From an uncultured delta proteobacterium (lineage in GTDB: Bacteria > Desulfobacterota > Zymogenia > Zymogenales > Zymogenaceae): DNA of 64,000 nucleotides. Within the stretch, counting starts at the first letter, position 1. The number at the start of each line of letters is the position of its first letter. Made by a program: the position numbers and the translations under genes. The notes beneath the pieces are model-generated. The model was not told the origin of the DNA. It did no database searches and saw only the letters and a program-made list of their open reading frames with translations. Where the stretch lies: assembly GCA_963735595.1 (NCBI GenBank), contig CAVTLK010000002.1:288001-352000 (forward strand), in the 5' to 3' direction. Positions 6,858 to 64,000 of this stretch are shown piece by piece.

Positions 6858-6859
6858 CG

Positions 6860-8982
6860 ATGGGCGTTTATCTAATGATCGCGGTCCACAATCACCAGCC
6901 GGTAGGGAATTTCCCCTGGGTCTTCGAGGGTGCCTTCGATCGGTCGTATGGCCCCTTCCTCGATGTCCTCAAACGATACCCCGACATCAGGATCACCCTC
7001 CACAATTCGGGCCCGCTCATCGACTGGATGGAACAAAACCGGCCTGAGTACCTTAATACCGTTGGGGAGCTCGCGGATCGCGGGCAGATCGAGATCATGG
7101 GAGGGGGCTATTACGAGCCGATCCTCTCGATCATCCCCGAGACGAGATGCCGCGACCCAGATCGATCGCATGAGCGGCTATATCAAGGATCGGTTCGGGA
7201 AGGCGCCGGCGGGTATCTGGATGACCGAGCGGGTCTGGGAACCGACGCTTCCGGCTATCACCGACCGCTCGGGAATCAGGTATACGCTTCTGGACGATAC
7301 CCACTTTCGCTACGCGGGGACTGGCGACAGACGAGCTCTTCGGCTACTACGTCACCGAGTATTCGGGGCACACGCTTTCGGTCTTCCCGATCGACCGGGG
7401 CCTGCGGTACACGATCCCCTTTCGCGAGCCGCAGGAGACGATCGCCCGGCTCAAGGAGATCGCCCGGAACAGGCCGGGGGCGGGAGTCGTCTACGGCGAC
7501 GACGGGGAAAAATTCGGACTGTGGCCCGGCACCCACCGGTGGGTCTACGAGGAGGGCTGGCTCGTCCGGTTTTTCGAGACGATCCTCGAAAACAGGGACT
7601 GGATCGAGCTGGTGACCTTCTCCGAATACCTCGACCGGTTTCCCCCCACCGGCAGGGTATACCTGCCTACCGCCAGCTACGAGGAGATGGCGGAGTGGGC
7701 GCTCCCGGCCGACGCCGTTCTTAAAGTACCGGGAGGTCAGAAAAAGGCTCACGGACGCCGGGATGATGGAGGCGGCCGGGCCTTTTATCCGGGGCGGGTT
7801 TTTCGCCAATTTCCTCTCCAAATACCGCGAATCAAACAACATGCACAAGCGGATGCTGTTCGTGAGCGGAAGGGTCGCCGCGGCGCCGGACGACAGGCGG
7901 AAGGCGGCGGACGCCGTTTCTGCTGTCGGCCCAGTGCAACTGCGCCTACTGGCACGGCCTCTTCGGGGGGCTCTACCTCAACTACCTGCGCCACGCGGTC
8001 TACCAGAACCTCTGCGCGGCCCAGCGTATCGTGGAGCAGGGCGGCGGGCCGACCTTCGAGCGGCTCGATTATGACGCGGACGGGTATGAGGAAATCCTCG
8101 TGTCCACACCGGGGCTTCATGCCGGCATCTCGCCGGCGCTCGGCGGCTCGCTCTTTCACCTGGATATTGTCGATTTCGATTTCTGCCTGACCAATACGAT
8201 GTCCCGGGTGTTCGAGGCCTACCACGACGAGGCCCGGCGCGGCCTCGTCGGCAAAGGCCGACGGGCGGCAGCCCGAGTCGATCCACGACCGCATGGTCCT
8301 GAAGGAAGCCGGACTTATTGATATACTTACCTATGACCGCAATCCCCGATACAGCTTCATGGATCACCTGTTTAACGACGCCGTGACGGTCGACGATCTG
8401 ATCGCCGGGCGGTACGACGAGGCGGGGGATTTCGTGACGGGTGAATACGCGGTAAGCGAGGCATCCAGGACACAAGACGGGATCACAATTGAGCTTATTC
8501 GGGAGGGGTCGATAGTCGTCGATTCGAAAAGGGTTTGCCTCGGAATAAAAAAGAGATATACTATACGAAACGGGTCGCCCTCCGTAACCGTCGGCTATAC
8601 CCTCATTAATCGGGGACTGGAAACGTGCTCGTTCTCTTTTGGGATCGAGAGCAACTACACGTTGCTGGCGGGCGACGACCCCGCGCGGTACCTGCTGCTG
8701 TCCGGCGATACGCGATACCCGATGAATGCGCGGGGGCAGGACGAGGGCATCGACGCCTTTTCGATTGTCGATGAGTTTTCGGGTTTCCGCGTCTCGTTTC
8801 GACACTCCCGGCCGGCGCGGCTTTCCCGCTTTGGCGTAGAGACTGCGTCCAACTCCGAGGGGGGGTTGGAGCGGACATACCAGGGGACCTGTATCGTCTC
8901 ACAGTTTCCCGTAGTCCTTTCGGGCGGTGGGGAATACCAAGTCGAGACCACGATGACCGTATTGCCGGTCGGGGAGAAGTGA
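6860..8982 (+). CDS. GH57 alpha-amylase/4-alpha-glucanotransferase (DUF1925/DUF1926 type), several frameshifts
   Basis: Motifs spread over changing frames: [82 protein letters not shown]. Confidence 0.88.
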
Positions 8983-10710
8983 AGGCCATGGAAGGCATCG
9001 GCTGTTTTACCTTTGTGCTCCACTCCCACCTGCCGTACGTTCTTTCCCACGGGCGGTGGCCGCACGGCACCGACTGGCTCAATGAGGCCTCCGCGGAGAC
9101 CTACGTCCCCCTTATCTCCGTCATCAAACGCCTTGCGGCCGACGGCATTGCCTCGAAGATAACGCTCGGCGTCACGCCGATACTTGCCGAGCAGTTGTCG
9201 TCCCCGTTGTTCGCGGACGGGTTTATCTCCTACCTTAAGCAGAAGATCGAAGCATCGCGTGACGATATCAGGGAGTTTGAGCGGCACGGCCAGAGGGAGC
9301 TTGCGGGGCTTGCCGCCATGTGGGAATCATTCTACGTCGATATCTACGAGGGCTTCGTATCGGGCTGCCGCGGCGACATTATCGGCGAACTGAGACGGCT
9401 CCGGGAACAGGGGGCCGTAGAAATCATCACGTCGGCCGCGACCCACGGATACCTCCCGCTCCTCGGATACGACCAGGCCGTCCGGGCGCAGATCGAAACC
9501 GGCGCCCGAACCCACGTGCGGCATTTCGGGACGAGGCCCGCCGGCATCTGGCTTCCCGAGTGCGCCTACCGTCCCGGATACCTCTGGGAATTCCCCGTCG
9601 AGGGCGCGGGGGAGGGGTACCGGCGCCGGGGCATCGAGGAGTTTCTCTCGGACGCCTCGATTTCCTACTTTGTCGTGGACTCCCACCTCCTCGAGGGGGG
9701 CAAGGCCGTCGGCGCCTACCTCGACCGTTTCGAGGGCCTCAAGGAGATTTGGGACCGCTTTATATCCGAGTATCGGGAAACCGTCGTCGACGAGCCGCGG
9801 TCGCCCTACGAATCGTACGCGGTCTCGTCGGAGGGTGGGCCGAAGACCGCCTCGATCTTCACGCGCGATCCCAAGAGCGCGCTGGTGGTCTGGAGCGGGG
9901 AACACGGATATCCCGGCGACAGCAACTACCTTGACTTCCACAAGAAGCATTTTCCCGGCGGCAACCGCTACTGGAAGGTCACCGGGCCGAAGGTCGATCT
10001 CGGAGAGAAACAGATCTATGATCCCGGCATCATTCCGGAACGTATCAGGGAGAACGCCGCGCATTTTGCCGGGCTGGTGCGGCGAACACTGGCCGATTTC
10101 TCTGGCACCCATCACCGTCCCGGGATCGTGACGGCGCCCTACGACACGGAGCTCTTCGGCCACTGGTGGTTCGAGGGGCCCCGATTCATCTATCAGGTCA
10201 TCAGGGAATTCAGCCGACGAACCCGGGGGTGCGCCTGACCACGCTGACCGAACACCACGAGGCCTACCCGCCCCGGAGGGTCGTCACTATTCCCGAAGGC
10301 TCCTGGGGAGAGGGGGGGTTCCACTGGATCTGGTTCAACGACTGGACAAAGTGGACCTGGCGGCATATCTACGAGGCCGAGAAGACAATGGTAGACCTCG
10401 TGGACGCCTCCGCGCAAGAAGCGACGACCCGGGCCTCGAACGGGTGCTGGCCCAGACGGCGCGGGAGCTGCTGCTGTTGGAGAGCTCCGATTGGCAGTTC
10501 CTGATTTCCACCTGGAGCGCACGGGACTACGCGGAGATGCGCTTCTCCGAACACTTCAACGATTTCACGAGACTCGCCGGCATCGCGCGGCGCATCATCG
10601 ACAATACCGAGCCGAGCACGGGGGATTGGGAGTTTGTCGGGGACATGGAGATGAAAGACGGGCCGTTTGCCGACCTGGATATCGGCCTGTGGAGATCGGA
10701 CGCCCCGTGA
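8979..10710 (+). CDS. GH57 1,4-alpha-glucan branching enzyme (DUF1957 C-terminus), frameshifted
   Basis: LHSHLPYV, ATHGYLPLL, GIWLPECAYRP, PYDTELFGHWWFEG, then EGSWGEGG and RELLLLESSDWQF in following frames. Confidence 0.9.
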
Positions 10711-49715: not shown

Positions 49716-50255
49716 TTAGGCGGCTACCATTCTCATATCACGCTTGAGCGTTTCCATGCGGATACGCCCGCGCTCCCGCGTTTTTTTGATCCCGCCGTCT
49801 ATCTTTTTTAGTTCGCTGAGGAGCTGCGCATCGCGCTGGTCGTGGCCGACGATCCACCGATGGAGGAGATCGCTTTCGAGACTGAGATGCTGTCTGAGGA
49901 TGTGGATGTATTGTGTAGCGTAATGAGGAAAGACCGCCCGCGCACCCTGATAGCCGAGGTCATAGGCCTCGATGACCTTGAGGAGAAACCGCTCGTATTT
50001 CCACAGGCTTGCGTGGGTTTCTTCACATTCCTGTCTGAGAGTTTCCACCCCGGGGCTTCCGAGGAGCGATAGAAGGAATTCCTCCCGTTTCATGTGGGAG
50101 ACATCGATATACATCTGCAGGAGTTCGATGATCTCCTTGAGCATATAAGGTGGAACCTCCTTATTCTGTTCCATCCGCCGGGCGGAGTGATCGAGCATCT
50201 CGAGCAGGGATTCTATGACCCGTTCTTCTTTCTTGACATATTCAATCGATTTCAT
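49716..50255 (-). CDS. Hemerythrin-like (HHE) domain protein
   Basis: SD GGAGGT before ATG 50255; YIDVSHMKREE, ETH, LRQHLSLE in a four-helix pattern. Confidence 0.75.
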   Translation of the reverse strand: MKSIEYVKKEERVIESLLEMLDHSARRMEQNKEVPPYMLKEIIELLQMYIDVSHMKREEFLLSLLGSPGVETLRQECEETHASLWKYERFLLKVIEAYDLGYQGARAVFPHYATQYIHILRQHLSLESDLLHRWIVGHDQRDAQLLSELKKIDGGIKKTRERGRIRMETLKRDMRMVAA

Positions 50256-50456
50256 ACTACCCACCTCCAAGACGTCATGTATCTGTGGGATTTTTGTTCG
50301 AAGCACCATCAAGGAGAGCCATTTACTATAAATTAGTCATGATACATCAGGTTTCAAGGCGTTATAGATCGCCTCGGAAAATAACAGAACTTCTTTTCAT
50401 GTGACGTAACAGAAAGGGGATATCCTCCTCTCATTGATCCTTCGCTTGTCCTTCCT

Positions 50457-51221
50457 TCATACCTTTTCCAGGATCTCTTTGGCCAGGTTCAGATAGGCCC
50501 GCGCCCCAACCGAGCTGACATCAAACAGGACCGCCGGATTGCCCCTCTTGGGGACTTCCGCCAGACGGGAGTTACGGGGAACGATCGTCTCAAATACCTT
50601 GGTCTTGAGGTCGCGTCTGAGGTCATAGGCCACCTCCTTTGATGTTGTAGTCCTTCCGTCCACCATAGTCAGGAGAAATCCGAGGAGCTTAAGATCCGGG
50701 TTATATCTTCCCCCCACGACGCGGGCCATCCTCATCAGACGTCCGATAGTCTTGAGTGCGAAGTATTCGCTCTGTACGGGAACCAGCAGGTAGTCGGCCG
50801 CGGCGATACCGGCCATCGTTACTGCGCCCAGCGAAGGGGGACAGTCTACGATGATGAACTCGTATTCCGCCTTGAGCACGTCGAGGATTCGCTTTATGAT
50901 GAGCAGGTCGTCGTTGATTGTGGAAAGGTAGAGCGTCTCCTCGTCATTTGTCCAGATGTTTGAGGGGATGAAACTAAGATACTCGATTTCGGTTCCGTGA
51001 ATGAGACGCTTCGGTTCGGCCTTATCGATAACGGCGTTGTACATCCCGCCGCGAAGCTGCTCCCGATCCCGTCCGAAGCTGATCCAGAGCCCGCACTGGG
51101 GATCAATGCCCACCACGAGGGTATTGCGCTCATACACGCCCAGGGAAGCGCCAAGATTAACCGCCGTGGTGGTTTTCCCAACCCCACCTTTTTGACTGGC
51201 TATCGTTATGACAATGCCCAT
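50457..51221 (-). CDS. ParA-family ATPase (ParC/PpfA-like, chemosensory-associated)
   Basis: SQKGGVGKTT, IDPQ, DCPPSLG, VPVQSEYFAL, LLTMVDGR, VPRNSRLAE; last gene of the che cluster, no parB nearby. Confidence 0.9.
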   Translation of the reverse strand: MGIVITIASQKGGVGKTTTAVNLGASLGVYERNTLVVGIDPQCGLWISFGRDREQLRGGMYNAVIDKAEPKRLIHGTEIEYLSFIPSNIWTNDEETLYLSTINDDLLIIKRILDVLKAEYEFIIVDCPPSLGAVTMAGIAAADYLLVPVQSEYFALKTIGRLMRMARVVGGRYNPDLKLLGFLLTMVDGRTTTSKEVAYDLRRDLKTKVFETIVPRNSRLAEVPKRGNPAVLFDVSSVGARAYLNLAKEILEKV

Positions 51222-51245
51222 ACGACCGCACCTCTCATAAACGGC

Positions 51246-52364
51246 TCAATGTCCGTTGGTGACCATAAGGTCGATCATCGCCGGGATCTGCTGGAGGGAA
51301 AGGACCGTATCGACAACGCCGTCTGCGATGGCCGATTTCGGCATTCCGAAGACGAGAGACGTCTTCTCGTCCTGGGCAATGGTCCTGCCTCCCATGATCT
51401 TGATCGCCTTGAAACCCCGCGAACCGTCCTTGCCCATCCCCGTGAGGATAACCCCGATCGTCTTTTGGCCGAAAATCGCCGCGGCCGAATAGAATAGGGT
51501 GTCGATCGAGGGAGTCGGTTTCGCTTGATCAGTACCCGCCTGCTGAAGCCCTATTTGCGGCGCCAGAAAAGACTTCTTGATCGTTATATCGTAATCGCCG
51601 GGGGCTACCAGAACCTTCCCGCCCTCCACGATTTCGCCATCCTGGGCCTCCACGACCGGCAGATGGCAAACCCGGTTAAGCCTTTCCGCGAAGAAGCGCG
51701 TAAAGAAACGGGGCATATGCTGAACGACGACGATGCCGACCGGGAAATTATCCCTGATTTTGCTCAGGATAAACTCGACGGCCTTTGGCCCTCCCGTCGA
51801 GGCGCCGATGACGACTACCTTGTTGTCGGACAGCTGCATCAGCTCCTGTCTGGTGTACCCTGACAGCGGCCTCTTGGGTGCTTCATCATGCAGCCGCGCG
51901 TCCATAGCCGCATCTTCTGCCCCCTTGATAGACAGGTAATACTCCATGTTGATAGCCGCGGCCGCCCTTATCTTAGCGATGAGCTCCTCCTTCAGGAACT
52001 GAAAGTTGAGCAGCATCGATCCTTTCTGAGGCTTCGTGATAAAATCGACGGCGCCGAGGTTAATAGCCCGAATCGTGATATTGGCCCCTTCCTTTGTGAG
52101 TCCGGAAAGCATGATGACGGGCGCCTGGTATTGTTCGACGAGCTCCCGTAATGCCGACAAACCGTCCATAGTGGGCATGATCACGTCCATGGTCACGACA
52201 TCGGGCTTGAATTCAATGTACTTCTTGATCGCCTCTTTACCGTCGGCCGCCAGCGCCGCGATCTCGATATCGGGTGTTTCTTCGACGACCTGGGTAATAG
52301 CCCGCCTGATAATCGCGGAATCGTCTACGACCAGGACCCTTATCTTCTTGCTATCCATTTTCAA
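51246..52364 (-). CDS. cheB: Chemotaxis response regulator methylesterase CheB
   Basis: REC domain (VVDDS, TMDVIMP, ITKP) plus the triad motifs GASTGGP, VQHMP, LTGMGKDG. The start may be ATG 52358. Confidence 0.95.
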   Translation of the reverse strand: MKMDSKKIRVLVVDDSAIIRRAITQVVEETPDIEIAALAADGKEAIKKYIEFKPDVVTMDVIMPTMDGLSALRELVEQYQAPVIMLSGLTKEGANITIRAINLGAVDFITKPQKGSMLLNFQFLKEELIAKIRAAAAINMEYYLSIKGAEDAAMDARLHDEAPKRPLSGYTRQELMQLSDNKVVVIGASTGGPKAVEFILSKIRDNFPVGIVVVQHMPRFFTRFFAERLNRVCHLPVVEAQDGEIVEGGKVLVAPGDYDITIKKSFLAPQIGLQQAGTDQAKPTPSIDTLFYSAAAIFGQKTIGVILTGMGKDGSRGFKAIKIMGGRTIAQDEKTSLVFGMPKSAIADGVVDTVLSLQQIPAMIDLMVTNGH

Positions 52365-52384
52365 CTCGATCCAGCGTTACCCGT

Positions 52385-55300
52385 CTATAGTTCTTCTTCC
52401 GGTTGATCCGGCGCCGGTGTTCGTTTGGGTTTGTAGCGTTCAAGCGTCTGATGCTTACGTATTGCCTTTTCCCGTTCTATGGCCAGATTTACCAATTCCA
52501 CTACGTCAAGTATCAGCGAGATAGAACCATCCCCCATGATTGAGGCGCCGGAAACTCCCTTGGTGTTGGCAAAATTCTTTTCAAGTGACTTGATGACGAT
52601 ATTGTCTTCCCCGACCAGCCGGTCGACCATCAGTCCAACCTCTCTGCCCTCGGCGGAAAGAATAACGATAAATAGATGCGTCGGCGGACTCGCGTCACCG
52701 GTTTGCCAGCCCATATTGGCCTTGAAGATTTCGCTGAGCTTGATAAGGGGCAGCACCTTGTCCCGTATCCTCAGGACCTGGTGGCTCTCGATCGTCTCTA
52801 TCTCTTCGATACCGATGCGGACAGTCTCAATGATAGACACCAGAGGGATCGCGTACACACGATCGGATATCCCCACAATCAGGGCCTGAATAATCGCCAG
52901 CGTCAGCGGCAGCTTGATCATAAAAGAGGTTCCGTTGTCCTTCACCGTCATGACTTCGACGGTTCCTTTCAGCTTTTCAATGTTTCTTTTAACAATGTCA
53001 AGCCCAACTCCCCTGCCGGAGACCTTACTGACCTTCCTGGCCATTGAGACCCCCGGCTTGAAGAGGTAGTCAAGGGCCTCACGGTCGGACACGCGGGAAA
53101 GCTCCTGGGCGGCAACCTCACCGTCGGCTACCATTCGCTTCTTCACGTCTTCCAGGTCGATTCCCTTTCCGTCGTCCTTTATATCTATGATGACCTGGTT
53201 ACCTTGATGGTACGCCGAGATTGAAAGCGTGCCTTCCTCCGGTTTTCCTTTCTTCTTTCGTTCTTCCCGGGACTCAATGCCGTGGTCTATCGAGTTGCGG
53301 ATGATGTGGATGAGGGGATCTCCGATTTCCTCGATGACCGACTTATCCAGTTCGGTCTCTTTGCCGGTAATCACGAGTTTGATATCCTTGTCCATGGCGT
53401 CGGCGAGATCGCGCACGAGCCGGGGAAAACGGGAGAAAAGCTGATTGATTCCGACCATCCTGACCCGCATGACTCCCTCCTGCAGGTCGTTGCTGATCCG
53501 TCCCAACTCCATTGCCGATGACTCGAGATCGAGGGCGAGCTGCCGAAGCAGGGAAAGCTCCCGCTTATTGAGTTTATCAAGATCATACATCTCCCGATAT
53601 ACGTCTCTGAAAACCCCGGTCAGCTGGGAGAATGTCGCCCTGTTTACGGCGAGCTCTCCTACAAGATTCATGATCGTATCAACACGCTCTGTTTCGACAC
53701 GCAGTGTCTGTCGCGAGTATGGAGCATCTGCGGGAAGCTCTCCGTCGTCTCCGGTCGGCTCACCGCCATCGGCGCCTCCCGGCCCGGCGCCCGCGTGGGT
53801 TTGCTCAGCGGAATCGATGGATACCGATTCCGACATACCGCTCAGGTCCATACGATCGCCGCCGATGTGTTCGGGGGACGGCTCGTCGGCGGCATCAACC
53901 GCGTCTTGCAGACCCTCGGCATCGGGGCGGGTTTTACCGGATACCGGGAGGGATTGGGAGCCCGTCAGCGAACCGATTTCTTCCTTCAATTTCGCATAAG
54001 ACTCCTCAAGGGCGGGGAGAATCGTTAACCCATCGTCAGTAACCGCCGATCCGTTGTTCAGGATCGTAAGCTGCTTATCGACGATATCAATCATCGAATA
54101 GTATCCCATGAATTTTGCCGAGGATTTGAGGCTCTCGAGGGCCTTCTTGCATACCTCGATACTTTCGGGAACGTCGGCCTTCTGTTTGATATGGGAGATA
54201 CAGGTATTGATCGTATCCAGGTGCTGGCCGGCTGCAGAAACGAAGATATCAAGGAGCTCCTCGTCCTCCGTGGTCTCCTGTTCCGAAGGCTCAGTAACGT
54301 CCACTGTCTCGGCCTTAACTACGGATTTCCTGAGCCCGCTCTTGAGATCGATGAGCCCGTTTATCAAAAGGTCCAAATCGGCCTGCTTAAGGCCCTCCTT
54401 GTCTGCCATGTATGTATCGATGAGCGTACGAATCGAGTCAAGGCGCTCTACGATGGTGTCGTATTCCATGTAGTGGGCCGATCTCCTGAGCTTCTGGAGG
54501 ACATCGAGCACCTCGGAGAGCGACTCCCGGTCGGCCGTCCTCTCCCGGATCTTCTGTTGATGTTTATCTATTATCGAGAAGAGATCGACGGTCGCCGACA
54601 GGAAGATGTCGATCAGCTCTTCGTCGTGACCGGCTGTCAGATCTTCAACAACTTCTTTGTTTGCCTGAGGGCCGCGCGCTGCAGGCGAGCCGCTGCGCCG
54701 CGGCTGACTCGGTTGAATCGGCTGAGTTACGCGCGCGGTATGGTCGTCCTTGAAGAATGACACGATGTCCTTGGCGAGCTTGAGGCTGATGCCGTTGACC
54801 GACTCCAGCTCTTCAATACGCGCATTTCTGAGCGACCCTATGGAACGAAAGCCGGCCTTATAGAGGAGTTTCACCTTGGAGCCGCCCACCCCCGGTATGA
54901 TGGTAAACTCCTTTATGGCCTGGTCGAGGGAGAGATCGCCGCCCGTATCTTTTGAGCTTTGTTCAGCTATCCCTCCCTGCCCGGATTTGTGTTTCCTGAC
55001 AAAGTCCTTAATATGGTCTAATGCCTTGTAGAAACTCAGGAGCTCGGTGCTGTTTATGTTTTCGCCTTCCTCTAAGAGCGCCAGAGCAGAATTCCTCATC
55101 CCCGCCAGTACGTTCTTGAGCTCATCGTAGCCAAAATACTCTATCGAGGAGGAAAAGCTGCTCACCAGATCCAGGAAGCGGTTCAGCTCCTCGATGGTCA
55201 TGTTGCCTTCAAGAGTCCCGAGCCCCCGCTCAAGGTCCTTTATGTGATGGGCAACGATCTCCCCGATACCCTCGTCGAAGATATCCGTCTGGCCCGTGCC

Positions 55301-55801
55301 GCCGCCCGCGCGATCGTCCGGTATGTCCTGATTCTTCCGCTCGTCACGTGTGGGAGGCGTCATCTCCGGCTCAGGACTCCGGTCAACAGGGCCTGCGGGA
55401 CTTATAAGGTCTTTTTCGCCCATAGATTCGAACGCGCCCCTGATCTTCGTTATGATCCGGTCGGTATCGGTCAACTCTTCGCCGGTTGTCGAGAGGTCAT
55501 TGAGAAGAGAATCGATACCGTCCTTTCCGTAAAACAGGACGTCGATGATTTCCCGGTTTATCTCGATCTTGCCCTGGCGAACCCGCTCGAGACACCCCTC
55601 CAATACGTGGAGGAAATCACCGAGTTTTACCAGGCCGATATAGTTTGCCGAGCCTTTGATGGTGTGTATGGACCGGAAGATCTGATTGAGGACCTCCTTG
55701 TTTTGGGGTTCCTCGAGGATCCGGTTGAGCGATTCTTCCAATTCCGCCAGGTGCTCGTTGCTCTCTATAATGAATTCCTTGAGCAATTCTTCGTCATACA
55801 T
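52385..55801 (-). CDS. cheA: Chemotaxis histidine kinase CheA, 1138 aa, expanded N-terminal region
   Basis: Hpt FRSIHTIKG (His46), dimerisation domain TLRVETERVDTIMNLVGEL, HIIRNSIDHGIE, DDGKGID, SGRGVGLDIV, LPLTLAI and a C-terminal CheW domain. Confidence 0.96.
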   Translation of the reverse strand: MYDEELLKEFIIESNEHLAELEESLNRILEEPQNKEVLNQIFRSIHTIKGSANYIGLVKLGDFLHVLEGCLERVRQGKIEINREIIDVLFYGKDGIDSLLNDLSTTGEELTDTDRIITKIRGAFESMGEKDLISPAGPVDRSPEPEMTPPTRDERKNQDIPDDRAGGGTGQTDIFDEGIGEIVAHHIKDLERGLGTLEGNMTIEELNRFLDLVSSFSSSIEYFGYDELKNVLAGMRNSALALLEEGENINSTELLSFYKALDHIKDFVRKHKSGQGGIAEQSSKDTGGDLSLDQAIKEFTIIPGVGGSKVKLLYKAGFRSIGSLRNARIEELESVNGISLKLAKDIVSFFKDDHTARVTQPIQPSQPRRSGSPAARGPQANKEVVEDLTAGHDEELIDIFLSATVDLFSIIDKHQQKIRERTADRESLSEVLDVLQKLRRSAHYMEYDTIVERLDSIRTLIDTYMADKEGLKQADLDLLINGLIDLKSGLRKSVVKAETVDVTEPSEQETTEDEELLDIFVSAAGQHLDTINTCISHIKQKADVPESIEVCKKALESLKSSAKFMGYYSMIDIVDKQLTILNNGSAVTDDGLTILPALEESYAKLKEEIGSLTGSQSLPVSGKTRPDAEGLQDAVDAADEPSPEHIGGDRMDLSGMSESVSIDSAEQTHAGAGPGGADGGEPTGDDGELPADAPYSRQTLRVETERVDTIMNLVGELAVNRATFSQLTGVFRDVYREMYDLDKLNKRELSLLRQLALDLESSAMELGRISNDLQEGVMRVRMVGINQLFSRFPRLVRDLADAMDKDIKLVITGKETELDKSVIEEIGDPLIHIIRNSIDHGIESREERKKKGKPEEGTLSISAYHQGNQVIIDIKDDGKGIDLEDVKKRMVADGEVAAQELSRVSDREALDYLFKPGVSMARKVSKVSGRGVGLDIVKRNIEKLKGTVEVMTVKDNGTSFMIKLPLTLAIIQALIVGISDRVYAIPLVSIIETVRIGIEEIETIESHQVLRIRDKVLPLIKLSEIFKANMGWQTGDASPPTHLFIVILSAEGREVGLMVDRLVGEDNIVIKSLEKNFANTKGVSGASIMGDGSISLILDVVELVNLAIEREKAIRKHQTLERYKPKRTPAPDQPEEEL

Positions 55802-55892
55802 GACGCCACCTTTATAGTGCTGAGGTTATCAATACCCACGGGTTATCGTTTTTGACGGGGCATCCTACTATCCTTCCCCGTTTCTAATTCGG

Positions 55893-56654
55893 TTATATGC
55901 TCGTATACAGTATATGGATTCCGACAAATAACATTACGAAAATAAAGAACTCCCTGAGCGAGTCTGTGCGCATACGCCGCGATATCTGAGAGCCGAGATA
56001 CGATCCGATAATTACGCCCGGCAGCCCCCACGCAACCGCCATAGGAGACAGGCTCCCGCCGAGCGACAGATGGGCGGTCAGGCCCATAACGACAACGATG
56101 AACATAACCGCAAGGGCCGTGCCGACGGCCACTTCCATACTGTAGTTGAGCCTTTTGACCATGGACGGCACAATAAAATCGCCGACGCCGATGGACAAGA
56201 GACCGCTCAGGAACGAAAAGAAGAACGGGATATACCCGACACGGGCGGCCTGTCTTACGCCTACGCGTCGGAGCTCGTTGTCCATATACCAATCCCGGCC
56301 GGAAAGGAAGAAGATGGCCAAACCGACGGCCGCCGTTCCCAGTCCCAGCCTCAGCACGTTATCGGGGAGGTACGTGCCCACGACGGAGCCGGCTATTACC
56401 ATCGGCAGCGCCAGGCCTGCGTAAAAGAGAGCCACTTTGATGTCTACCCTCCCGGACCGCCAGTATGCGATGGTCCCGACCCCCATCCCCCCTACCTGGA
56501 TAGCCAGCGCAGTGGTGATGGCCTCCGGTGGCTGAATGCGGTACAGGAGGATTAGCACGGGCGACCACAAGATCCCCCCTCCAATGCCGAGCATAACGGC
56601 TACCGTGGAAATGGCAATCCCAAAAAGGAAGATCGTAAACGGAAACTGCTCCAT
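55893..56654 (-). CDS. TSUP family (TauE/SafE) membrane transporter
   Basis: 253 aa, about 8 TM; LGIGGGILWSP and LSIGVGDFIVP repeats, AVGTAL, IGSYLGSQI. Confidence 0.88.
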   Translation of the reverse strand: MEQFPFTIFLFGIAISTVAVMLGIGGGILWSPVLILLYRIQPPEAITTALAIQVGGMGVGTIAYWRSGRVDIKVALFYAGLALPMVIAGSVVGTYLPDNVLRLGLGTAAVGLAIFFLSGRDWYMDNELRRVGVRQAARVGYIPFFFSFLSGLLSIGVGDFIVPSMVKRLNYSMEVAVGTALAVMFIVVVMGLTAHLSLGGSLSPMAVAWGLPGVIIGSYLGSQISRRMRTDSLREFFIFVMLFVGIHILYTSI

Positions 56655-56660
56655 AGGGTT

Positions 56661-57284
56661 TTATCTCTTCAACCGGGATAAATCAGCCCTGGCGAGGTTG
56701 AAATCCCTTGTCATCTCATCGAGTTGTTCCATCTCTTCAGAGATACGCTCCATATCGGCCAGTACGACCTCGTGGTCGCCTTTCTCATACGCCGCCTTCA
56801 TGGACCGGACCCGCTCACGGCACCTGTTGCCCGTAATACGCACCACTCCAATAACCTCACCGAAATCGGAGACGACGTCGTTGATAAACCGTCCCAGTCT
56901 CCCGATTTCATCGTTCACATAGACCGGGATCGGATTCCCGAAATCACCCTGTGCCATATTCGCCGTAACGGCAAACATACGCCGGAGGGGTATGGTAATC
57001 TTTTTAACGAACAGAATCAGTACAACGCCCGTTACGAAGGACTGGATCGCGATCAGGAAAATCACCTTTCTCTTTATCTGATCGATGGGGGCCGTAGCCG
57101 GGCCGCTACCCATTTGCGCCTGATACTGACCCTGGGAACCGGGTCCCAAACCCCGATTCGGCTCCTGAGCGTTGATGTCAATGAGAAACTCAAATCCGAG
57201 CACTAACGAGGAAAAGACGATGATACAGACGTATATCATCATCCTCCTGGTCAGCGTGACGGTTCTTGTATTCGTTGGTTTCAT
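56661..57284 (-). CDS. 2-TM HAMP protein with no signalling domain (tip-less chemoreceptor-like)
   Basis: TM1, short loop, TM2, HAMP ITIPLRRM...GDF...PVYVNDEIGRLGRFIND, then about 60 aa of coiled coil and a stop. Confidence 0.82.
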   Translation of the reverse strand: MKPTNTRTVTLTRRMMIYVCIIVFSSLVLGFEFLIDINAQEPNRGLGPGSQGQYQAQMGSGPATAPIDQIKRKVIFLIAIQSFVTGVVLILFVKKITIPLRRMFAVTANMAQGDFGNPIPVYVNDEIGRLGRFINDVVSDFGEVIGVVRITGNRCRERVRSMKAAYEKGDHEVVLADMERISEEMEQLDEMTRDFNLARADLSRLKR

Positions 57285-57286
57285 CG

Positions 57287-58099
57287 TTATATAAATATAC
57301 CCAACACGACGTTTCTATTGTCCCAGATCATCTTGATGCCGGTCAGAAAGACGAAGAGCGAAAAGAACGTCTTCAAAAGAGATCCCTTGGCGAGCCTGTT
57401 GATGATCGGACCCAGCTGGCCTCCGATCAAGACGCCGCCCATCGTGAAGATCGCAACCTCCCACCGGATCTGGCCCTCCCAGATATTGATGGATGTTGCC
57501 ACCCATCCGGCCAGCCCTTCCACGACCACGGTCGTGGCAATAGCCCGATGGACGTTCATCTTGTATACCCGCTCCAGGAGGGGAAACGAGGTCTCGGCGG
57601 TACCGATGGAGGAAAGACCGCTCGAAATACCCCCGATGAACGGAACCCACGCGAAGGGGTAGATTTCCTCAGTCAAAAAACCTTCGCGGTCTCCGTATCG
57701 TTTTTCCGCCATAGATGCGAAAGTCCAGACGGCGCAACACGTTACGACGAGTCCGAAAAAGATCTTAAGGATCGCCTCATCGAGCACCATCACCAGGTGC
57801 AGGCCGATAACGACGCCGGGTATGGTCAGCAGTACCATCGGGAACGCCATGGAAAACTCGATCTGCCTTTGCCTGGTGTACGCGACCATGCCTGACGTCA
57901 TGCCGCAGAGCTCCGTGACCATGCCGGTCCCTATCGCCTCCGGCACGCTCATCTTGAGTGCGTAGACGAAAATGGGGAAAAAGATAATGGCGCCCCCGAA
58001 CCCGCTGCTGGTGGCCATCGATGCCGCCAGGATAGCCACCGGAAACATAAACCAGTAGTGAGTCGTCGCAGACCAGATGTAGTGACCAACGGCTTCCAT
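57287..58099 (-). CDS. TSUP family (TauE/SafE) membrane transporter
   Basis: 270 aa, about 8 TM; SGFGGAIIFFP, AIGTG, SSIGTAE, AIATTV, GVLIGGQLGP. Confidence 0.88.
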   Translation of the reverse strand: MEAVGHYIWSATTHYWFMFPVAILAASMATSSGFGGAIIFFPIFVYALKMSVPEAIGTGMVTELCGMTSGMVAYTRQRQIEFSMAFPMVLLTIPGVVIGLHLVMVLDEAILKIFFGLVVTCCAVWTFASMAEKRYGDREGFLTEEIYPFAWVPFIGGISSGLSSIGTAETSFPLLERVYKMNVHRAIATTVVVEGLAGWVATSINIWEGQIRWEVAIFTMGGVLIGGQLGPIINRLAKGSLLKTFFSLFVFLTGIKMIWDNRNVVLGIFI

Positions 58100-58112
58100 G
58101 TGATCCTTCCCT

Positions 58113-58841
58113 TTACACTTTCGTTAGATCGACCTGATAGAACTTGAATGATTCCACCAGGGACTTCAGCTCGCCGATATTGGAGTAAAGTGTGTTCAAC
58201 TCCCGTCGAATATCTTCGGTAATTTCCTTTTCCTTAAGGACCTCAACGCTGTTATAGACGCTGTCGACCGACCGGACGGCCGAATTATTGATCTTACCCA
58301 CCATGAGCAGTACTTCCTGAAAATCGGCGGTTATATCGTTAATGATAGAGCCAAGCTGGCCGATCTCGTCCTTCGTGTAGACCGGCATCGTCGTGGAGAG
58401 GTTTCCCCGTGATATCTCCCGGGCGGCGTGTACCATTTCGTCCAGCGGCCCGGCCACCTCCTTGATGAAGAACCAGAGCGCCACGCCGACGCAAAAGATG
58501 GTGATGGCCAGGATAATGAGCATCCGTTTCTGGAGATGGTAGAGGGGGGCGAAAACCTGCTCGTAATCAAGGTCTTCTACGGACCCCTCGATATTCTGGG
58601 CCCGGGCCTCGGCGACGAAATTGCCCTGCATCTTGTTGGTAAGCCTGGCTTCCCCGATCTCCCAGATCAATTCAAGGCTCATGGAGATCGAGACAGCCAC
58701 GATCAACAGAAAATAGATGAGCAGCTTTTTCTTCAGGTTGGTGAAGACCGCGCGTTTTCTCCGCAGCAAAAGGCTGCTTCTGCGTTCTGTTTTTCTCCGA
58801 TCAGTTCCATCCCAATCGGGACTCCCGTTTTTATACGTCAT
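58113..58841 (-). CDS. 2-TM HAMP protein with no signalling domain (tip-less chemoreceptor-like)
   Basis: TM1, about 45-aa loop, TM2, HAMP AGPLDEM...GNL...PVYTKDEIGQLGSIIND, then coiled coil ending LKSLVESFKF. Confidence 0.82.
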   Translation of the reverse strand: MTYKNGSPDWDGTDRRKTERRSSLLLRRKRAVFTNLKKKLLIYFLLIVAVSISMSLELIWEIGEARLTNKMQGNFVAEARAQNIEGSVEDLDYEQVFAPLYHLQKRMLIILAITIFCVGVALWFFIKEVAGPLDEMVHAAREISRGNLSTTMPVYTKDEIGQLGSIINDITADFQEVLLMVGKINNSAVRSVDSVYNSVEVLKEKEITEDIRRELNTLYSNIGELKSLVESFKFYQVDLTKV

Positions 58842-58922: not shown

Positions 58923-59297
58923 TTAATCTTCCAGAATTTTAACGATCCGCTCCCTGAGCTCTTCCGGTTTGAATGGCTTGAGGATGACCGCCTTGATCCC
59001 CATCTTGAGGGCCGCTTCTTCAAGGAAGTGCTTTTCTTCCTCCTGCCGCAACGTCAGGAGTACCAGCCTGGCCGTCGGGTCTTCCTTCAGGATCTGTTCT
59101 GCCGCAGCAAAACCGTCGGTGTTTCTCATGGTGACGTCCAGGGTTACCAGATCGGGCTTGAGCTCGCGAAATAGCGCGACCGCCTCGTCGCCATCCTTTG
59201 CCTCTCCGATCACCTTCAGTTCACCGCCGTCCAACGCTTCCTTGATCCGGTTCCTCATGAACGACGAATCATCCACCACCAATAACCTCTTAGCCAT
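58923..59297 (-). CDS. cheY: Single-domain response regulator, CheY-like
   Basis: LVVDDSSFMR, LVTLDVTM, ILKPF; 124 aa. Confidence 0.88.
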   Translation of the reverse strand: MAKRLLVVDDSSFMRNRIKEALDGGELKVIGEAKDGDEAVALFRELKPDLVTLDVTMRNTDGFAAAEQILKEDPTARLVLLTLRQEEEKHFLEEAALKMGIKAVILKPFKPEELRERIVKILED

Positions 59298-59469
59298 AGT
59301 GCACTCCTCACTCTCGGTAACGTGTGGGTTGTCGACAACGCCACACCCGGTGTCGGCCGGCCCCGTCCCTCTGACGCGCCGCCTCGTTTTGCGAGGCGAC
59401 GCTCGTCGGTATCCGTTACGTTAACACGTATCTCAAACACGAGAACGGGACAAGCCCGGTCCGGACGTC

Positions 59470-61845
59470 TTACTGCCCGGCTGCCTTGATCGCTTCTTCC
59501 TTCTCTATTTCCTCGGTGGTGCGGTATTTGAACTGCTGCATCAAGCCGACGTTGGCGCCCGATGATTCCACGATGTTCCGCTGGAATTCGGACACCTGTG
59601 ATGCCTGTGCGGCAACGCGCTCCGCGTTCCTGGATTCGTCTGCGACCGACTTGTTGACGGTATCGGCGATACTAACGACCGACTCGATGTTCTTTTCCAC
59701 GGTCGTAGTGGCGCGTCCCGACTCGCCGGTCATCTCCACGATTTCCTGCGCAAGAGACGCCAGGTCGTCCATCGACCTGAGGACTTCTTCGATACTCCTC
59801 AGCTGCTGGGCCATGGCGTCGGCAACGATCTGGTTGATCTTGACGGCCTCGTTACCACCATCCACACCGATCTGCAGGAACTCGGCAGCCTGCTTGGCAA
59901 GTCCGGAGTTTGTCCTGGTAACTTCGCGGTTGGTCTCGACGTTCTTCAGAATGGTGGAAAGGGTCTGGGCGATGTCGCCGGCGGCCTTTGATCCCTGCTC
60001 AACTGCCTTGTTGGCGTTCTTAATAAGATCGGAGATCTCCTTGGTTGCGTCGGCGCTGCGCTCGGCCAGCTTCCGCACCTCGTCGGCGACGACCGCAAAG
60101 CCCTTGCCGTGTTCCCCGGCACGGGCCGCCTCGATGGCGGCGTTAAGCGCCAGGAGGTTGGTCTGCTCGGCGATGTCGTTGATGACCTCGACGATCTCAA
60201 ACACCTGCTCGGTCGACTCCGTAATGGCCTTCATGCCTTCCTCGTTCAGCCGCACACCCTCCTGGCCCTTCTGCACGATACCCATGACCTCCTCGGCGCG
60301 GTCGGACGCTTTGGCCGCCTCCTGGGACACGGTGTTAGCGATATTCAGGGCGTCGTTAAGCTTCTTGACCGCCTCGACGCTGCCTATACGAACCCGCTCG
60401 GCCTCCCGGGCAACCTCGGTAAGCGACGCTGCCATCTCGTTGACCGCCGATGATGTCTGGGCCGCGTTGGTGGCCTGGGCGTTGGCGCGCTCCTGAACCT
60501 GCCGTGAGGCCTTGGCCACCTCGCCCGCCAGAGACAGCGACTCGTGAGAACTGCGCGCGGCCTCGTCGGTGACGTTCGTGATCCGCTCAAGCGATCCCCT
60601 GAGCGCGCCCATCAGGCCCGCGTTGTCTGCAGACAGCGGCGCAGCCGACTCGCTGTAGCTACGCACGAGGCCGGCGTTCCTGGCGACCCTGGCCACGATG
60701 CCTTCGAGCCTGAAGACAAACTCGTTAAATCCCCGGGCAAGCATCCCGATCTCGTCATCGCCCGCGGCGGGAAGCCGCCTGGTCAGGTCGGCGCCGGCGC
60801 CCGCCAGGGCGGTCATCTCGTTTGCGATCCTGATGATCGGCTGGGCAATGGCGCGGGCAAGCAGATAGCCGACGCCGGCCGCTATGAACAGGATAAGGAT
60901 GGTCATCAGGGTTGCGTAGTTCCGTGTCGCATTCAATGACGCGAGGACCTCGTCTTCACCCTGCTCAGCGACCAGGATCCAGTTGTAATCCGCAAGGTAA
61001 TCAACAACCCCGAAGACGTCGTTGCCCAGATAGTTCTTCCACCGCCCAACGGTGAGGTCTTCCCCGCCTCCCTCCTCTTTGCCGGAGATCACGTCGGGGA
61101 GGGACTTAGCTTTGAGGAAGGCGTCGCTTTTGCTCAAATCGAGCTCGAGGATGGAGCTCTCCTTGATCATGCCCTCTTTCTTCAGCTCGTCGACAAAACG
61201 TGACTCCGAAATCATCAATCCCGTACTCGCGTCGATCAGATACACCTCACCGGTCTCTCCCAGGGACATAGATTCTCTGAGGAGGTTGCTGAGGTACTTC
61301 ATGTTGACCTGCTCAACAAAGACGCCGACTGTCGTATTGCCCCTCTTAACGGCAGAGGCGAGTACGAGAATCGGGTTTTTGGTACGGTTACTGAAAACCA
61401 TTTCGTATTGTCGTTCGGCCTTTCCGCTCATTATGTCCTTGTAATATTGGCGCTCTTTGATCGTAATTGTCCCGATATACCTCGGTTCGCTGTCCGCCAC
61501 TATATAACCGCCGCCCCCCTCGCAGTAGCTGATACCTTCAAGGTAGTCGGCCCTGCTTTTAACCAATGCCCCGAAAAAGATATTTGCCAGCGCATAATCT
61601 CCTGATTCAAGCGACGACGTAAACTCGAGGTCCGTCGGAAAGTCGTTAAGATCATGTCCTCTTTCTGACATGAAAGAACGCACCAAACCGTCCGCTGAAT
61701 CAACCAAAGACGTTAGACGTTCCCGGGTAAGATTTTCCGTGTCGGACTTGATCCGGTAATATGCCAGGACCGAGATCGTCAGCGCCGGTACGAGGGCCAT
61801 AAGGACGATCGCGATGATCAGCCTGGTTCGCAGTGTAAACTTCAT
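59470..61845 (-). CDS. Methyl-accepting chemotaxis protein (dCache-like sensor, HAMP, MA domain)
   Basis: 2 TM flanking a large extracytoplasmic domain, HAMP DLTRRL...DEIG, tip [40 protein letters not shown]. Confidence 0.96.
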
Positions 61846-61889
61846 TTGTTGCCTCCTTTATCCTTTCTTGCTTTTTCCTTGTTAATAGG

Positions 61890-62378
61890 TCACAGGGTGG
61901 AGAGCTGCCGCTGCTCGCCGGCCGTCAATATTTTCGAGAAATCCAGGAGAATAACCAGACGGTCGTCGATTCTGCTTACACCGGTGATATACTCGCCCTC
62001 CACCCCGCTCATGATCATATCCGGGGCGCCCTGCACGGACCCCGCGGGCACGGTTATGACCTTCGATACCGAATCGACCACAAAACCGGTAACCCGTTTT
62101 TCCAGCTCGATAATGATGATACGCGTTGCCTTATCGGCATCAATCGTGGGAATGTTGAGCCGTTTCCTGAGGTCGATAACCGGGACTACCTTTCCGCGCA
62201 GGTTGATGACCCCCTCGACGAACCGCGGGGTATTGGGGACTTCGGTTACCGGTGCCGGCCGTATGATCTCCTGCACCAGGAGGATATCGACTCCGAACTC
62301 TTCCTGGCCTAAGAAGAAGGTCACTATCTGGAAATCGCCGGTCGGCGTTGTCTTTGGTTTTCGCGATATTTCGGACAT
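61890..62378 (-). CDS. cheW: Chemotaxis coupling protein CheW
   Basis: FFLGQEEFGVDILLVQEI, VEGVINLRGKVVPVIDLR, GFVVDSV; SD GGAGGT. Confidence 0.95.
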   Translation of the reverse strand: MSEISRKPKTTPTGDFQIVTFFLGQEEFGVDILLVQEIIRPAPVTEVPNTPRFVEGVINLRGKVVPVIDLRKRLNIPTIDADKATRIIIIELEKRVTGFVVDSVSKVITVPAGSVQGAPDMIMSGVEGEYITGVSRIDDRLVILLDFSKILTAGEQRQLSTL

Positions 62379-62402
62379 AACTGTCACCTCCACGTATCTT
62401 CG

Positions 62403-63236
62403 CTACTGTTTCTTATATATAAAGACGTCATTGACGCGCTCCTGCATGAACCGGTCGGTATGGCGGAGGACCGATTCGGTAGAGGCGGTAAAAAGGAAAC
62501 CGCCCGGATTCAATACATCGGAAAGCCCATTCACGAGGGTGCGCGCACGATCGTTCGAAAAATACATTAAGACGTTACGGCAGAAGACGGCGTCGAACGA
62601 GAAAGCGGGTCGACGCACCCACGACCGGGTGTCGTTGAGGTTGACAGGGTAAAACTCGACTAACCGTTTAACCCGGTCATCGACCTGCCAGTATCCGCCG
62701 TCTTCGATCATATACTTCACCCGATACTCCTCCGGGAGATGACGGACCGACCAATCTTCATACCGCGCGGTCCGCGCATGGCGCAGGGACTTCGTATTGA
62801 TGTCACAGCCCACGATCTTCACTTTAAGGTCGCCGGCTTCCAGTATCTTTCCGAATCGCTCCAGAACGATCATCGCCACGGTGTAAGGCTCTTCACCGGT
62901 GGAACAGCCTGCTGAAAGTATATTGATTCTTCGGTCGAGCGCGGTCCCCGATTCAAAGAGCCGACCCAACACTTCTTCCTGGAATACGATACATTGGTCT
63001 TCCTCCCGGTAGAAGTAGGTCTCGCTGACCGCCAGCCTGTCAAGGAGCTCAACGACTTCGGTGTCGGGCGCCCGGTGCTTTACGTAAAGGAAGTAGCTGA
63101 AGGGATTCTCAATTTCGAGCTCCCTCTGACGCTCGGCGACCTTCTTCTTAAAGACCTTGGCCCTTCCGTTGAGTATTGTCACTCCCGTGACCTCCTGGAC
63201 GTAGTCCATGACCATGTCGACTCCGTCCCTATTCAC
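62403..63236 (-). CDS. cheR: Chemotaxis methyltransferase CheR
   Basis: SETYFYRE, SAGCSTGEEPYT, FCRNVLMYF, LNPGGFL. Confidence 0.95.
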   Translation of the reverse strand: MNRDGVDMVMDYVQEVTGVTILNGRAKVFKKKVAERQRELEIENPFSYFLYVKHRAPDTEVVELLDRLAVSETYFYREEDQCIVFQEEVLGRLFESGTALDRRINILSAGCSTGEEPYTVAMIVLERFGKILEAGDLKVKIVGCDINTKSLRHARTARYEDWSVRHLPEEYRVKYMIEDGGYWQVDDRVKRLVEFYPVNLNDTRSWVRRPAFSFDAVFCRNVLMYFSNDRARTLVNGLSDVLNPGGFLFTASTESVLRHTDRFMQERVNDVFIYKKQ

Positions 63237-63609
63237 CTTCTCCTCCCAACAGCATCTTCATATGCGTAACGAGCCTTTTGGGTTCAGTCGGCTTTATGAG
63301 GTATATGTTTGCCCCGGCCGACAATCCCCGCTCTCTGTGACGCGCCGCCTCTTCCTCAACGGTGATGATAATGATCGGGACCGACTGATACCCGTCAAAT
63401 GTCCTGATTTGTTTGATGAATTCATACCCATCCATAACGGGCATGAATACGTCGGTGATGATCCCGTCGTAACACCTGGAGCGGGCCAACGAAAGGCCTT
63501 CGGCGCCGTTTTCGGCGGTATCGACGGCAAATCCCTCCGTCTTGAAGATTACCCGGATCGAATCTCGAATTACCTTTGAGTCATCAACGACCAACAAGTG
63601 TGGAGACAT
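63229..63609 (-). CDS. cheY: Single-domain response regulator, CheY-like
   Basis: LLVVDDS, IITDVFMPVMDG, IIIT, YLIKP; 126 aa from ATG 63609. Confidence 0.9.
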   Translation of the reverse strand: MSPHLLVVDDSKVIRDSIRVIFKTEGFAVDTAENGAEGLSLARSRCYDGIITDVFMPVMDGYEFIKQIRTFDGYQSVPIIIITVEEEAARHRERGLSAGANIYLIKPTEPKRLVTHMKMLLGGEGE

Positions 63610-63626
63610 ATTCTCCCCGCTCCTAC

Positions 63627-64000
63627 CTATGACTTGACCATGAGCGCCCGGGCAATCTCTTGGGCCAGGAGATAATCCGGGACAATTCTGTCTGCCAATC
63701 CTTTTTGTATGACCTGTCCGGCCATTTCGGGTGAAAGGCACGTATCCGTCTGTTGAACGATGATGGTCCCGCCCACCCGCTTGAGCTCCTGGGCGCCCTC
63801 GAGCCCGTCAACACCTTCCCCCGTCAGGACCACGCCGATCGCCCTCTCACCGAACGCTTCGGCCAGGGACATCAGAAGCATGTTGAATGAATTGCGGTGC
63901 TCAAAATCAAACGGCCGATCGTTGAGCCTGATACTACTGGCGGCTCCTTCCCGAAGGACCGTCATGTAGCGGCTGTCGGAGCATAAGTAACAGACGCCGT
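63627..64000 (-). CDS. Divergent CheB-type methylesterase domain, 5' part outside window
   Basis: SLAEAFGERAIGVVLTGEGVDGLEGAQELKRVGG, frame open to the window edge. Confidence 0.85.
   Translation of the reverse strand, partial: GVCYLCSDSRYMTVLREGAASSIRLNDRPFDFEHRNSFNMLLMSLAEAFGERAIGVVLTGEGVDGLEGAQELKRVGGTIIVQQTDTCLSPEMAGQVIQKGLADRIVPDYLLAQEIARALMVKS

Follow-up and report, generated by a model that had tools for sequence, protein, structure and literature searches.

A helix-hairpin-helix domain in a ParA-linked CheA of Desulfobacterota: a possible weak tether to the nucleoid

What might a helix-hairpin-helix (HhH) domain of a kind found in DNA-repair proteins do inside a chemosensory kinase? 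The question is raised by a cheA gene (52385 to 55801, minus strand) in a 64,000-nucleotide stretch of contig CAVTLK010000002.1 (positions 288,001 to 352,000; assembly GCA_963735595.1) from an uncultured delta proteobacterium of the Desulfobacterota, family Ca. Zymogenaceae. We call the whole stretch the window. The product, of 1138 amino acids, is ordered Hpt, pseudo-Hpt, (HhH)2, pseudo-Hpt, pseudo-Hpt, long P3, P4 and P5. We conclude that the HhH-bearing CheA is an undescribed, ParA-linked subclass of Desulfobacterota, probably non-flagellar, with a kinase-free paralogue.

An (HhH)2 domain predicted to fold separately within CheA

The 49 residues in which HhH motifs were originally predicted are the exact translation of window positions 54761-54907 (minus strand). 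This core corresponds to CheA residues 299-347; the whole (HhH)2 domain, delimited by Pfam HHH_5, the AlphaFold2 helices and the superpositions on 1X2I and 4BXO_B, covers residues ~291-355 (54737 to 54931, minus strand). An HHH_5-like match had been expected, and HHH_5 (PF14520) indeed scored 36.3 bits (E 8e-9) in the whole CheA and 40.7 bits with the segment alone, the Pfam cut-off being 27 bits. HHH_2 (35.2) and HHH (26.2) were likewise above their cut-offs, and automatic Pfam annotation of homologues of this CheA already flags HHH_5. The nearest sequences in the PDB were those of the archaeal eL32 N-terminal HhH, Hjm, FAAP24, RadA and UvrC.

An AlphaFold2 model of CheA residues 173-493 (predicted template modelling score 0.34) consisted of three independently folded domains joined by disordered linkers. 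Its HhH had five helices (120-127, 135-143, 149-153, 157-161 and 168-183 in model numbering) at a predicted local distance difference test score of about 76-86, with disordered linkers on either side. The modelled HhH superposed on the (HhH)2 of Hef (1X2I; Z 10.5, root-mean-square deviation (rmsd) 1.8 Å, 65 residues aligned) and on FAAP24 (4BXO_B; Z 10.1, rmsd 1.4 Å, 60 residues aligned, 40% identity). The domain has in common with FAAP24, Hef, UvrC and the RadA/Rad51 N-terminus a profile above the cut-off and the same fold (Z about 10, rmsd 1.4-1.8 Å). A Foldseek search with the three-domain model gave no match at E<=0.001, and Atlas searches gave nothing beyond leads below 0.9, to Myxococcota HHH_5 proteins.

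An independently assembled 7.3-kb contig (run X1) spans window positions 50424-56000 with 168 substitutions and one gap. The HhH is not an assembly artefact, because this contig crosses cheA without a gap inside the gene; the Pfam score, the homologues and the contig together ruled out both an artefact and a chance match. In the model, the segment forms an (HhH)2 bead of its own, joined by flexible linkers to the Hpt domains on either side, which lack the histidine. These flanking domains were absent from the original description.

Distribution of the HhH among CheAs

Ca. Zymogenaceae is represented by 10 genomes, the window's own included. Six of them have a CheA of this type, all six with the HhH, and the gene order around cheA is the same wherever contigs reach. 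The expectation that orthologous CheAs would carry the domain was borne out in 11 of 12 homologues matched with the CheA middle region. A 761-amino-acid protein (P0008) that seemed to be a homologue without HhH is the downstream half of the frameshifted gene of a genome of the same genus, G217, and the upstream half has the HhH. Over seven distant orthologues, identity was 54% in the HhH, 46-51% in the pseudo-Hpt domains, 65-72% in the kinase core and 17-21% in the linkers. The HhH is under purifying selection, as shown in comparison with G217 by nonsynonymous and synonymous divergences (dN, dS) of 0.038 and 0.32, a dN/dS of about 0.12.

For distant CheAs, HMMER was run on 1.84 billion representatives. 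Among the best 150 of 3967 matches, eight were CheAs with the HhH, six of them exceeding the Pfam cut-off. A full-length profile search found no HhH-CheA besides 11 known ones among the best 120 of 195 matches; this search was insensitive, because the distant HhH-CheAs were missed. A metagenome scan with P0083 gave no matches, and a search with P0044 gave P0049 only.

In a sample of 401 genomes of the phylum, from which the CheAs closest in P3-P4 were taken, the HhH was present also in the CheAs of genome G049 and of the sister family f57. This CheA occurs in 40 of 70 f57 genomes; at the best 30 f57 loci the HhH was clear in 27, decayed in one and absent from two, and was thus kept in 28. As a control, none of 66 full-length CheAs from 80 metagenome loci, collected in a scan with the G049 CheA, had it.

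In a quick tree of P3-P5, based on 45 of 66 rows after thinning of 15 close relatives and removal of six rows (four long branches, one partial sequence and one CheA outside the subclass), the subclass formed one clade with a Shimodaira-Hasegawa-like approximate likelihood ratio (SH-aLRT) support of 97. The HhH was found in four other deep branches of the subclass, the deepest branches bear it, and HhH-less clades were nested among HhH-bearing lineages, with four state changes on the tree. Monophyly of the HhH-bearing CheAs as one recent clade was rejected on this tree (approximately unbiased test, p 0.014). The domain is lost or decayed in whole clades and in G239, G447 and G448, and half-decayed in G368. 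The simplest reading would be one early gain followed by several losses, so that the HhH, first described as inserted in CheA, seems most simply an ancestral feature of the subclass.

Linkage to ParA and a kinase-free paralogue

The window's parA (50457 to 51221, minus strand) is Soj-like (KGGVGKT, DPQCG, R190, R219) and has no adjoining parB. Wherever the contig extends far enough downstream of an HhH-bearing cheA, parA lies directly after cheA or after cheB: in the window, four family relatives, G049, G267 and all 28 HhH-bearing f57 loci. The contigs of G187 and G148 (the latter not among the 30 f57 loci) end too early for a call. Of 18 HhH-less subclass loci, each with about 4 kb or more on either side, 13 had no parA in the stretch, which does not mean absence from the genome, three had a ParA of another clade and two had one of the same clade. 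At two f57 loci where the HhH is deleted, the same-clade ParA is still present. The loci are related to one another. In brief, the HhH implies ParA, and ParA does not need the HhH.

The ParAs of the operon, the stand-alone trio, f57 and family f9 form one clade (SH-aLRT 95) with the DPQCG motif; the ParA of G049 took no settled place on the tree. The operon ParA, with its deviant Walker A motif KGGVGKT, is an orphan in the che operon, and a chromosomal soj lies elsewhere, near a trmE-like gene on contig C4. In a tree built without ParC and PpfA references, the operon ParA grouped with Soj-like sequences. In Soj, R189 and R218 are required for non-specific DNA binding (PMC3778016). The corresponding residues, matched by motif with B. 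subtilis Soj itself outside the alignment, are 190 and 219; Arg or Lys was found at 219 in 25/25 members of the clade and at 190 in 22/25. The ParA of the operon in family f60 (L079:11656-12621) belongs to another clade and has an N-terminal zinc-ribbon-like domain. The idea that ParAs of this type are without DNA-binding residues was not upheld, as 7/12 and 11/12 were basic.

A second copy of the HhH was found in a protein without kinase domains. On contig C4 of the same genome (G000:C4:137019-140204, equal to L042:9020-12205; minus strand), a trio of genes encodes a dead CheB (354 amino acids, with broken catalytic motifs), a protein of ~415 amino acids ordered pseudo-Hpt, (HhH)2, pseudo-Hpt and a helical region, and a Soj-like ParA, the HhH protein lying between the other two. 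By hhalign, the stand-alone HhH aligned to the CheA HhH at 99.5% and the second bundle to pseudo-Hpt 3 at 96%. The stand-alone protein was matched by the search with the CheA middle region in the window's genome and in 9/9 family relatives (10/10 together), and in four of these ten genomes the HhH-CheA was not found. The full trio is present in the window's genome and seven of nine relatives; the contigs of the remaining two end early. By sequence, the HhH region of CheA and the stand-alone protein appear to be copies of one module, the latter a kinase-free spin-off. Its C-terminal helices were considered as a P3 remnant dimerising with CheA, which was unsupported (hhalign 0.9%). The link to ParA is stronger than the original prediction guessed, because it recurs in the kinase-free trio and across distant lineages.

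DNA-type and protein-type features of the HhH

The GhG hairpin (h, hydrophobic) touches DNA through backbone amides (PMC3783174), and the proposed DNA site of FAAP24 is its first hairpin, G168-V169-G170, with K171/K173 (PMC3905867). Hairpin 1 of CheA, G304-V305-G306 with K309 (54875 to 54892, minus strand), shares with FAAP24 the GVG followed by Lys at +3, in the same spacing. In its GhG and following basic residue, motif 1 agrees with DNA-binding HhHs and has a putative DNA-binding signature. This signature is conserved: GhG with Lys three residues on is present in 12/12 family CheAs, GhG in 6/6 CheAs of other deep lineages, where the mean net charge is +4.7, and, among stand-alone copies, Lys or Arg in 12/12 and GhG in 9/12. 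The net charge of the 49-residue core is +4, while that of the whole CheA is -5.5 per 100 amino acids.

Of the two motifs originally described, the (HhH)2 fold of the model and both superpositions supported the pair as such, but the second hairpin, G337-I338-S339 (54785 to 54793, minus strand), is non-canonical at its third position. It reads G-I-S/N in the family CheAs, and G-I-S is seen also in the RadA/eL32-type PDB matches. FAAP24, Hef, UvrC and RadA are DNA-repair proteins, whereas the HhH of CheA lies in a signalling kinase, has this G-I-S hairpin and has a ligand that is putative.

A protein-binding type of the same structural family is found in the acidic repeats AR1 and AR2 of NusA, likewise a small bead on flexible linkers. 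The f57 HhH, acidic and without GhG..K in 28/28 homologues, resembles these repeats. The HhH of the window's CheA differs from the NusA repeats in being net basic (+4) and in keeping GhG..K.

Possible role of the HhH

We propose, with a probability of roughly 0.4, that the HhH is a weak nucleoid tether that aids ParA-driven positioning of the signalling complex. In the window's lineage, the first hairpin (GVG..K) and a basic face would bind the DNA backbone weakly and without sequence preference. With many CheA dimers in an array, such weak contacts would add up and keep the complex at the surface of the nucleoid, the expected location of ATP-bound ParA dimers. ParA could then move or space the complex through a diffusion-ratchet, as is the case for carboxysomes and for clusters positioned by PpfA. 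In this scheme the HhH would give additional grip without being the adaptor essential for ParA activation; in lineages with an acidified HhH, the domain may have turned into a protein dock or a relic.

Several observations weigh against a DNA tether. Hairpin 2 is without the GhG of DNA-binding HhHs. Net charges in the family, from sequence alone, range from -5 to +4, with the window's CheA at +4 and four members net negative (-1 to -5). In f57, GhG was found in 0/28 and Lys in 0/28, with a mean charge of -3.1; retention of the HhH does not need the DNA signature, because f57 keeps the domain (28/30) without GhG or Lys. GhG can also be conserved for structural reasons alone. ParAs of the operon's clade are present at four loci without HhH (G239, G087, G447, G448) and at G368, where the HhH is decayed; a role as obligatory ParA adaptor was rejected because the first four loci keep this ParA. 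Plain co-inheritance may explain why the HhH and ParA occur together; there were few independent losses (four changes on the tree). Three stand-alone ParAs have His at 190. The sole receptor of the operon has a dCache sensor domain and looks transmembrane. Finally, Vibrio ParC keeps its basic residues and has so far not been seen on the nucleoid (PMC11407121).

The strongest alternative, nearly as probable as the tether, is that the (HhH)2 serves for protein docking, as do the acidic repeats of NusA. Its partner would be the ParA dimer, a pseudo-CheB, an adjacent pseudo-Hpt domain or another copy of itself, and DNA binding would be irrelevant. The HhH repeats of NusA are a protein-interaction and oligomerisation region (PMC3731644), and the HhH of CheA occupies the P2 position, among domains that are probably docking sites. 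The retention of the HhH in f57, where both GhG and the basic residue have been lost entirely, can be explained in this way. In the stand-alone trio there are few candidate partners for ParA, and the stand-alone copies have additional hydrophobic residues in the second motif. On the other hand, the window's lineage and the other deep lineages retain a DNA-type hairpin and a basic charge, although the surrounding proteins are very acidic. ParA is also retained where the HhH is deleted; the HhH is therefore at least not its sole dock.

A bolder form of the tether is unlikely. According to it, this CheA subclass would contact the chromosome through its own (HhH)2 and so act, in the manner of ParB, as the adaptor that couples it as cargo to a dedicated Soj-like ParA, and the module would later have been spun off as the kinase-free trio (dead CheB, pseudo-Hpt-HhH scaffold and ParA), positioning other cargo over the nucleoid. 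If this were true, the subclass would be an example of a DNA-binding chemosensory kinase.

It is quite improbable that nucleic-acid binding by the HhH has a regulatory purpose apart from positioning, as input or as output, for example tuning the kinase or localising phosphotransfer to DNA-bound regulators, the adjacency of parA being an operon legacy. The same sequence evidence as for the DNA tether would apply, a ribosomal-protein HhH is among the closest PDB sequence matches, and the output seems non-flagellar. However, kinase tuning leaves unexplained that a kinase-free copy keeps the HhH beside a sister ParA at a separate locus, and none of the operon's genes was seen to encode a DNA-binding response regulator. 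Least probable is a folded spacer or fading relic without specific ligand, kept because it is embedded in an essential protein: its repeated loss or decay would fit, but the HhH is more conserved than the flanking pseudo-Hpt domains and far more than the linkers, has a low dN/dS, and persists throughout the family in two paralogous proteins.

Comparison with known systems

We know of only two systems in which ParA-like positioning of chemosensory arrays is understood, with a separate adaptor or a receptor tail. In both, PpfA-TlpT of Cereibacter sphaeroides and ParC-ParP of Vibrio, an orphan ParA-like ATPase lies in a chemosensory operon, as here. PpfA coats the nucleoid and positions clusters, and McdA is a parallel (PMC11407121, PMC9178275). 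The present system differs in several respects. Neither a ParP-like gene nor a cytoplasmic receptor like TlpT was seen in its operon, and the candidate element for contact with the nucleoid is part of CheA itself. There is also the additional trio without a kinase, and flagellin and FliG were not found. A domain of the DNA-grip type built into CheA, beside one ParA clade and duplicated without the kinase, would be a concrete third design. Basic GVG..K versions, acidic hairpin-less versions and natural deletions provide a natural comparison set.

Multi-Hpt CheAs such as Pseudomonas aeruginosa ChpA, of the type IV pili (Tfp) class, class F4 and C. sphaeroides CheA3 have extra Hpt copies, some histidine-less, and no P2, as in the window's CheA. 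ChpA has a C-terminal receiver, unlike the window's CheA, and such a receiver is present in over 90% of multi-Hpt CheAs (PMC10782961). The P3 of the window's CheA is longer than in most of the F4 rows examined (63-66 amino acids) in Table S2 of that survey. Rows given there as 'cheaF1' with three Hpt domains and a dimerisation domain of 78-79 amino acids, from Desulfomonile tiedjei and Desulfatitalea tepidiphila (1140-1191 amino acids), match the HhH-CheA subclass in length and long P3, a comparison of architecture and not of sequence. The survey, of 13,673 CheAs, names P2, receiver and CheC/CheX as auxiliary domains. In the excerpts of it no HhH is listed, and 'HHH' and 'helix-hairpin' occur 0 times in three supplements (PMC10782961). 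A literature search, mostly without subscription journals, for CheA with helix-hairpin-helix or HhH, or with PATAN, CheB or Desulfo-, gave nothing relevant. The HhH, absent from this current survey of CheA architecture, marks a chemosensory subclass that has had no name.

Domain architecture of CheA

All features of CheA are on the minus strand. The P1 Hpt domain (55487 to 55801; Pfam Hpt, residues 5-101) has the phospho-accepting H46, which is nearly invariant. In the three pseudo-Hpt domains the position of this histidine is taken by other residues. Pseudo-Hpt 2 (residues 173-270; 54992 to 55285) has Ser214, matches P1 at 62% by hhalign and, as modelled, superposes on CheA P1 1TQG (Z 15.7, rmsd 1.6 Å). 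Pseudo-Hpt 3 (residues 391-492; 54326 to 54631) has Gln436, matches P1 at 83% and is a four-helix bundle in the model, and pseudo-Hpt 4 (residues 512-610; 53972 to 54268) has Glu556 and matches P1 at 88% and pseudo-Hpt 3 at 98%. The kinase core, with a lengthened P3 (residues 698-780), P4 and P5, extends from 52478 to 53719.

By Pfam, all domains of a CheA kinase are present (an Hpt with its His, dimerisation, HATPase_c and CheW domains). No P2 or CheY-binding domain was matched, and this is not a classical five-domain CheA; the usual P2 region is occupied by the three pseudo-Hpt domains and the HhH. Pfam also found no C-terminal receiver domain, a mark of the class of type IV pili and alternative cellular functions (Tfp/ACF). 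In place of P2, it is probably the pseudo-Hpt domains on which the receiver domains of CheY and the pseudo-CheBs dock.

Operon and genome context

The operon is ordered REC (receiver), pseudo-CheB, REC-PATAN-REC-pseudo-CheB, cheY, cheR, cheW, MCP (methyl-accepting chemotaxis protein), cheY, HAMP, TSUP, HAMP, TSUP, cheA, cheB and parA. The cheB gene (51246 to 52364, minus strand) has intact catalytic motifs (GASTGG, QHMP, GMGKDG). Immediately upstream of cheA, genes for two TauE/TSUP transporters are interleaved with genes for two short HAMP membrane proteins that have no signalling domain (55893 to 58841, minus strand), in a gene order identical in 4/4 relatives whose contigs reach that far. 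TSUP/HAMP genes recur beside subclass cheA in G049 and f60. Because they are kept in the family and recur in these lineages, transport may be coupled to sensing.

Farther upstream (58923 to 64000, minus strand) are cheY, a dCache-HAMP transmembrane MCP, cheW, cheR, cheY and the 3' end of a REC-PATAN(DUF4388)-REC-pseudo-CheB gene; another pseudo-CheB and a REC gene lie just past the right end of the window. The REC-PATAN-REC-pseudo-CheB and the second pseudo-CheB form the operon head (L001:628-3489). Together with the copy on C4, these two bring the number of CheB look-alikes in the genome whose catalytic motifs are broken to three.

The window's genome, 93% complete, encodes two CheAs, two MCPs and PilT homologues, and had no match to flagellin or FliG. 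The chemosensory output is probably not flagellar, because neither was found. In an RNA run, scattered portions of the operon were covered, the HhH not among them.

Overlapping partial open reading frames at window positions 6845-10238 suggest frameshifts in several window genes, and the cheA genes of G217 and G091 (L053, L057) are frameshifted. Assembly indels may be the cause in all these cases. Beyond parA lies a hemerythrin-like gene (window 49716-50312) with two further paralogues in the genome; elsewhere such a gene adjoins the operon only in G217. A second chemosensory cluster (L043:4137-10863; G000:C5) includes MglA/MglB-like genes, and the P1 match of its CheA lies upstream of the long cheA frame, indicating either a bipartite CheA or a frameshift.

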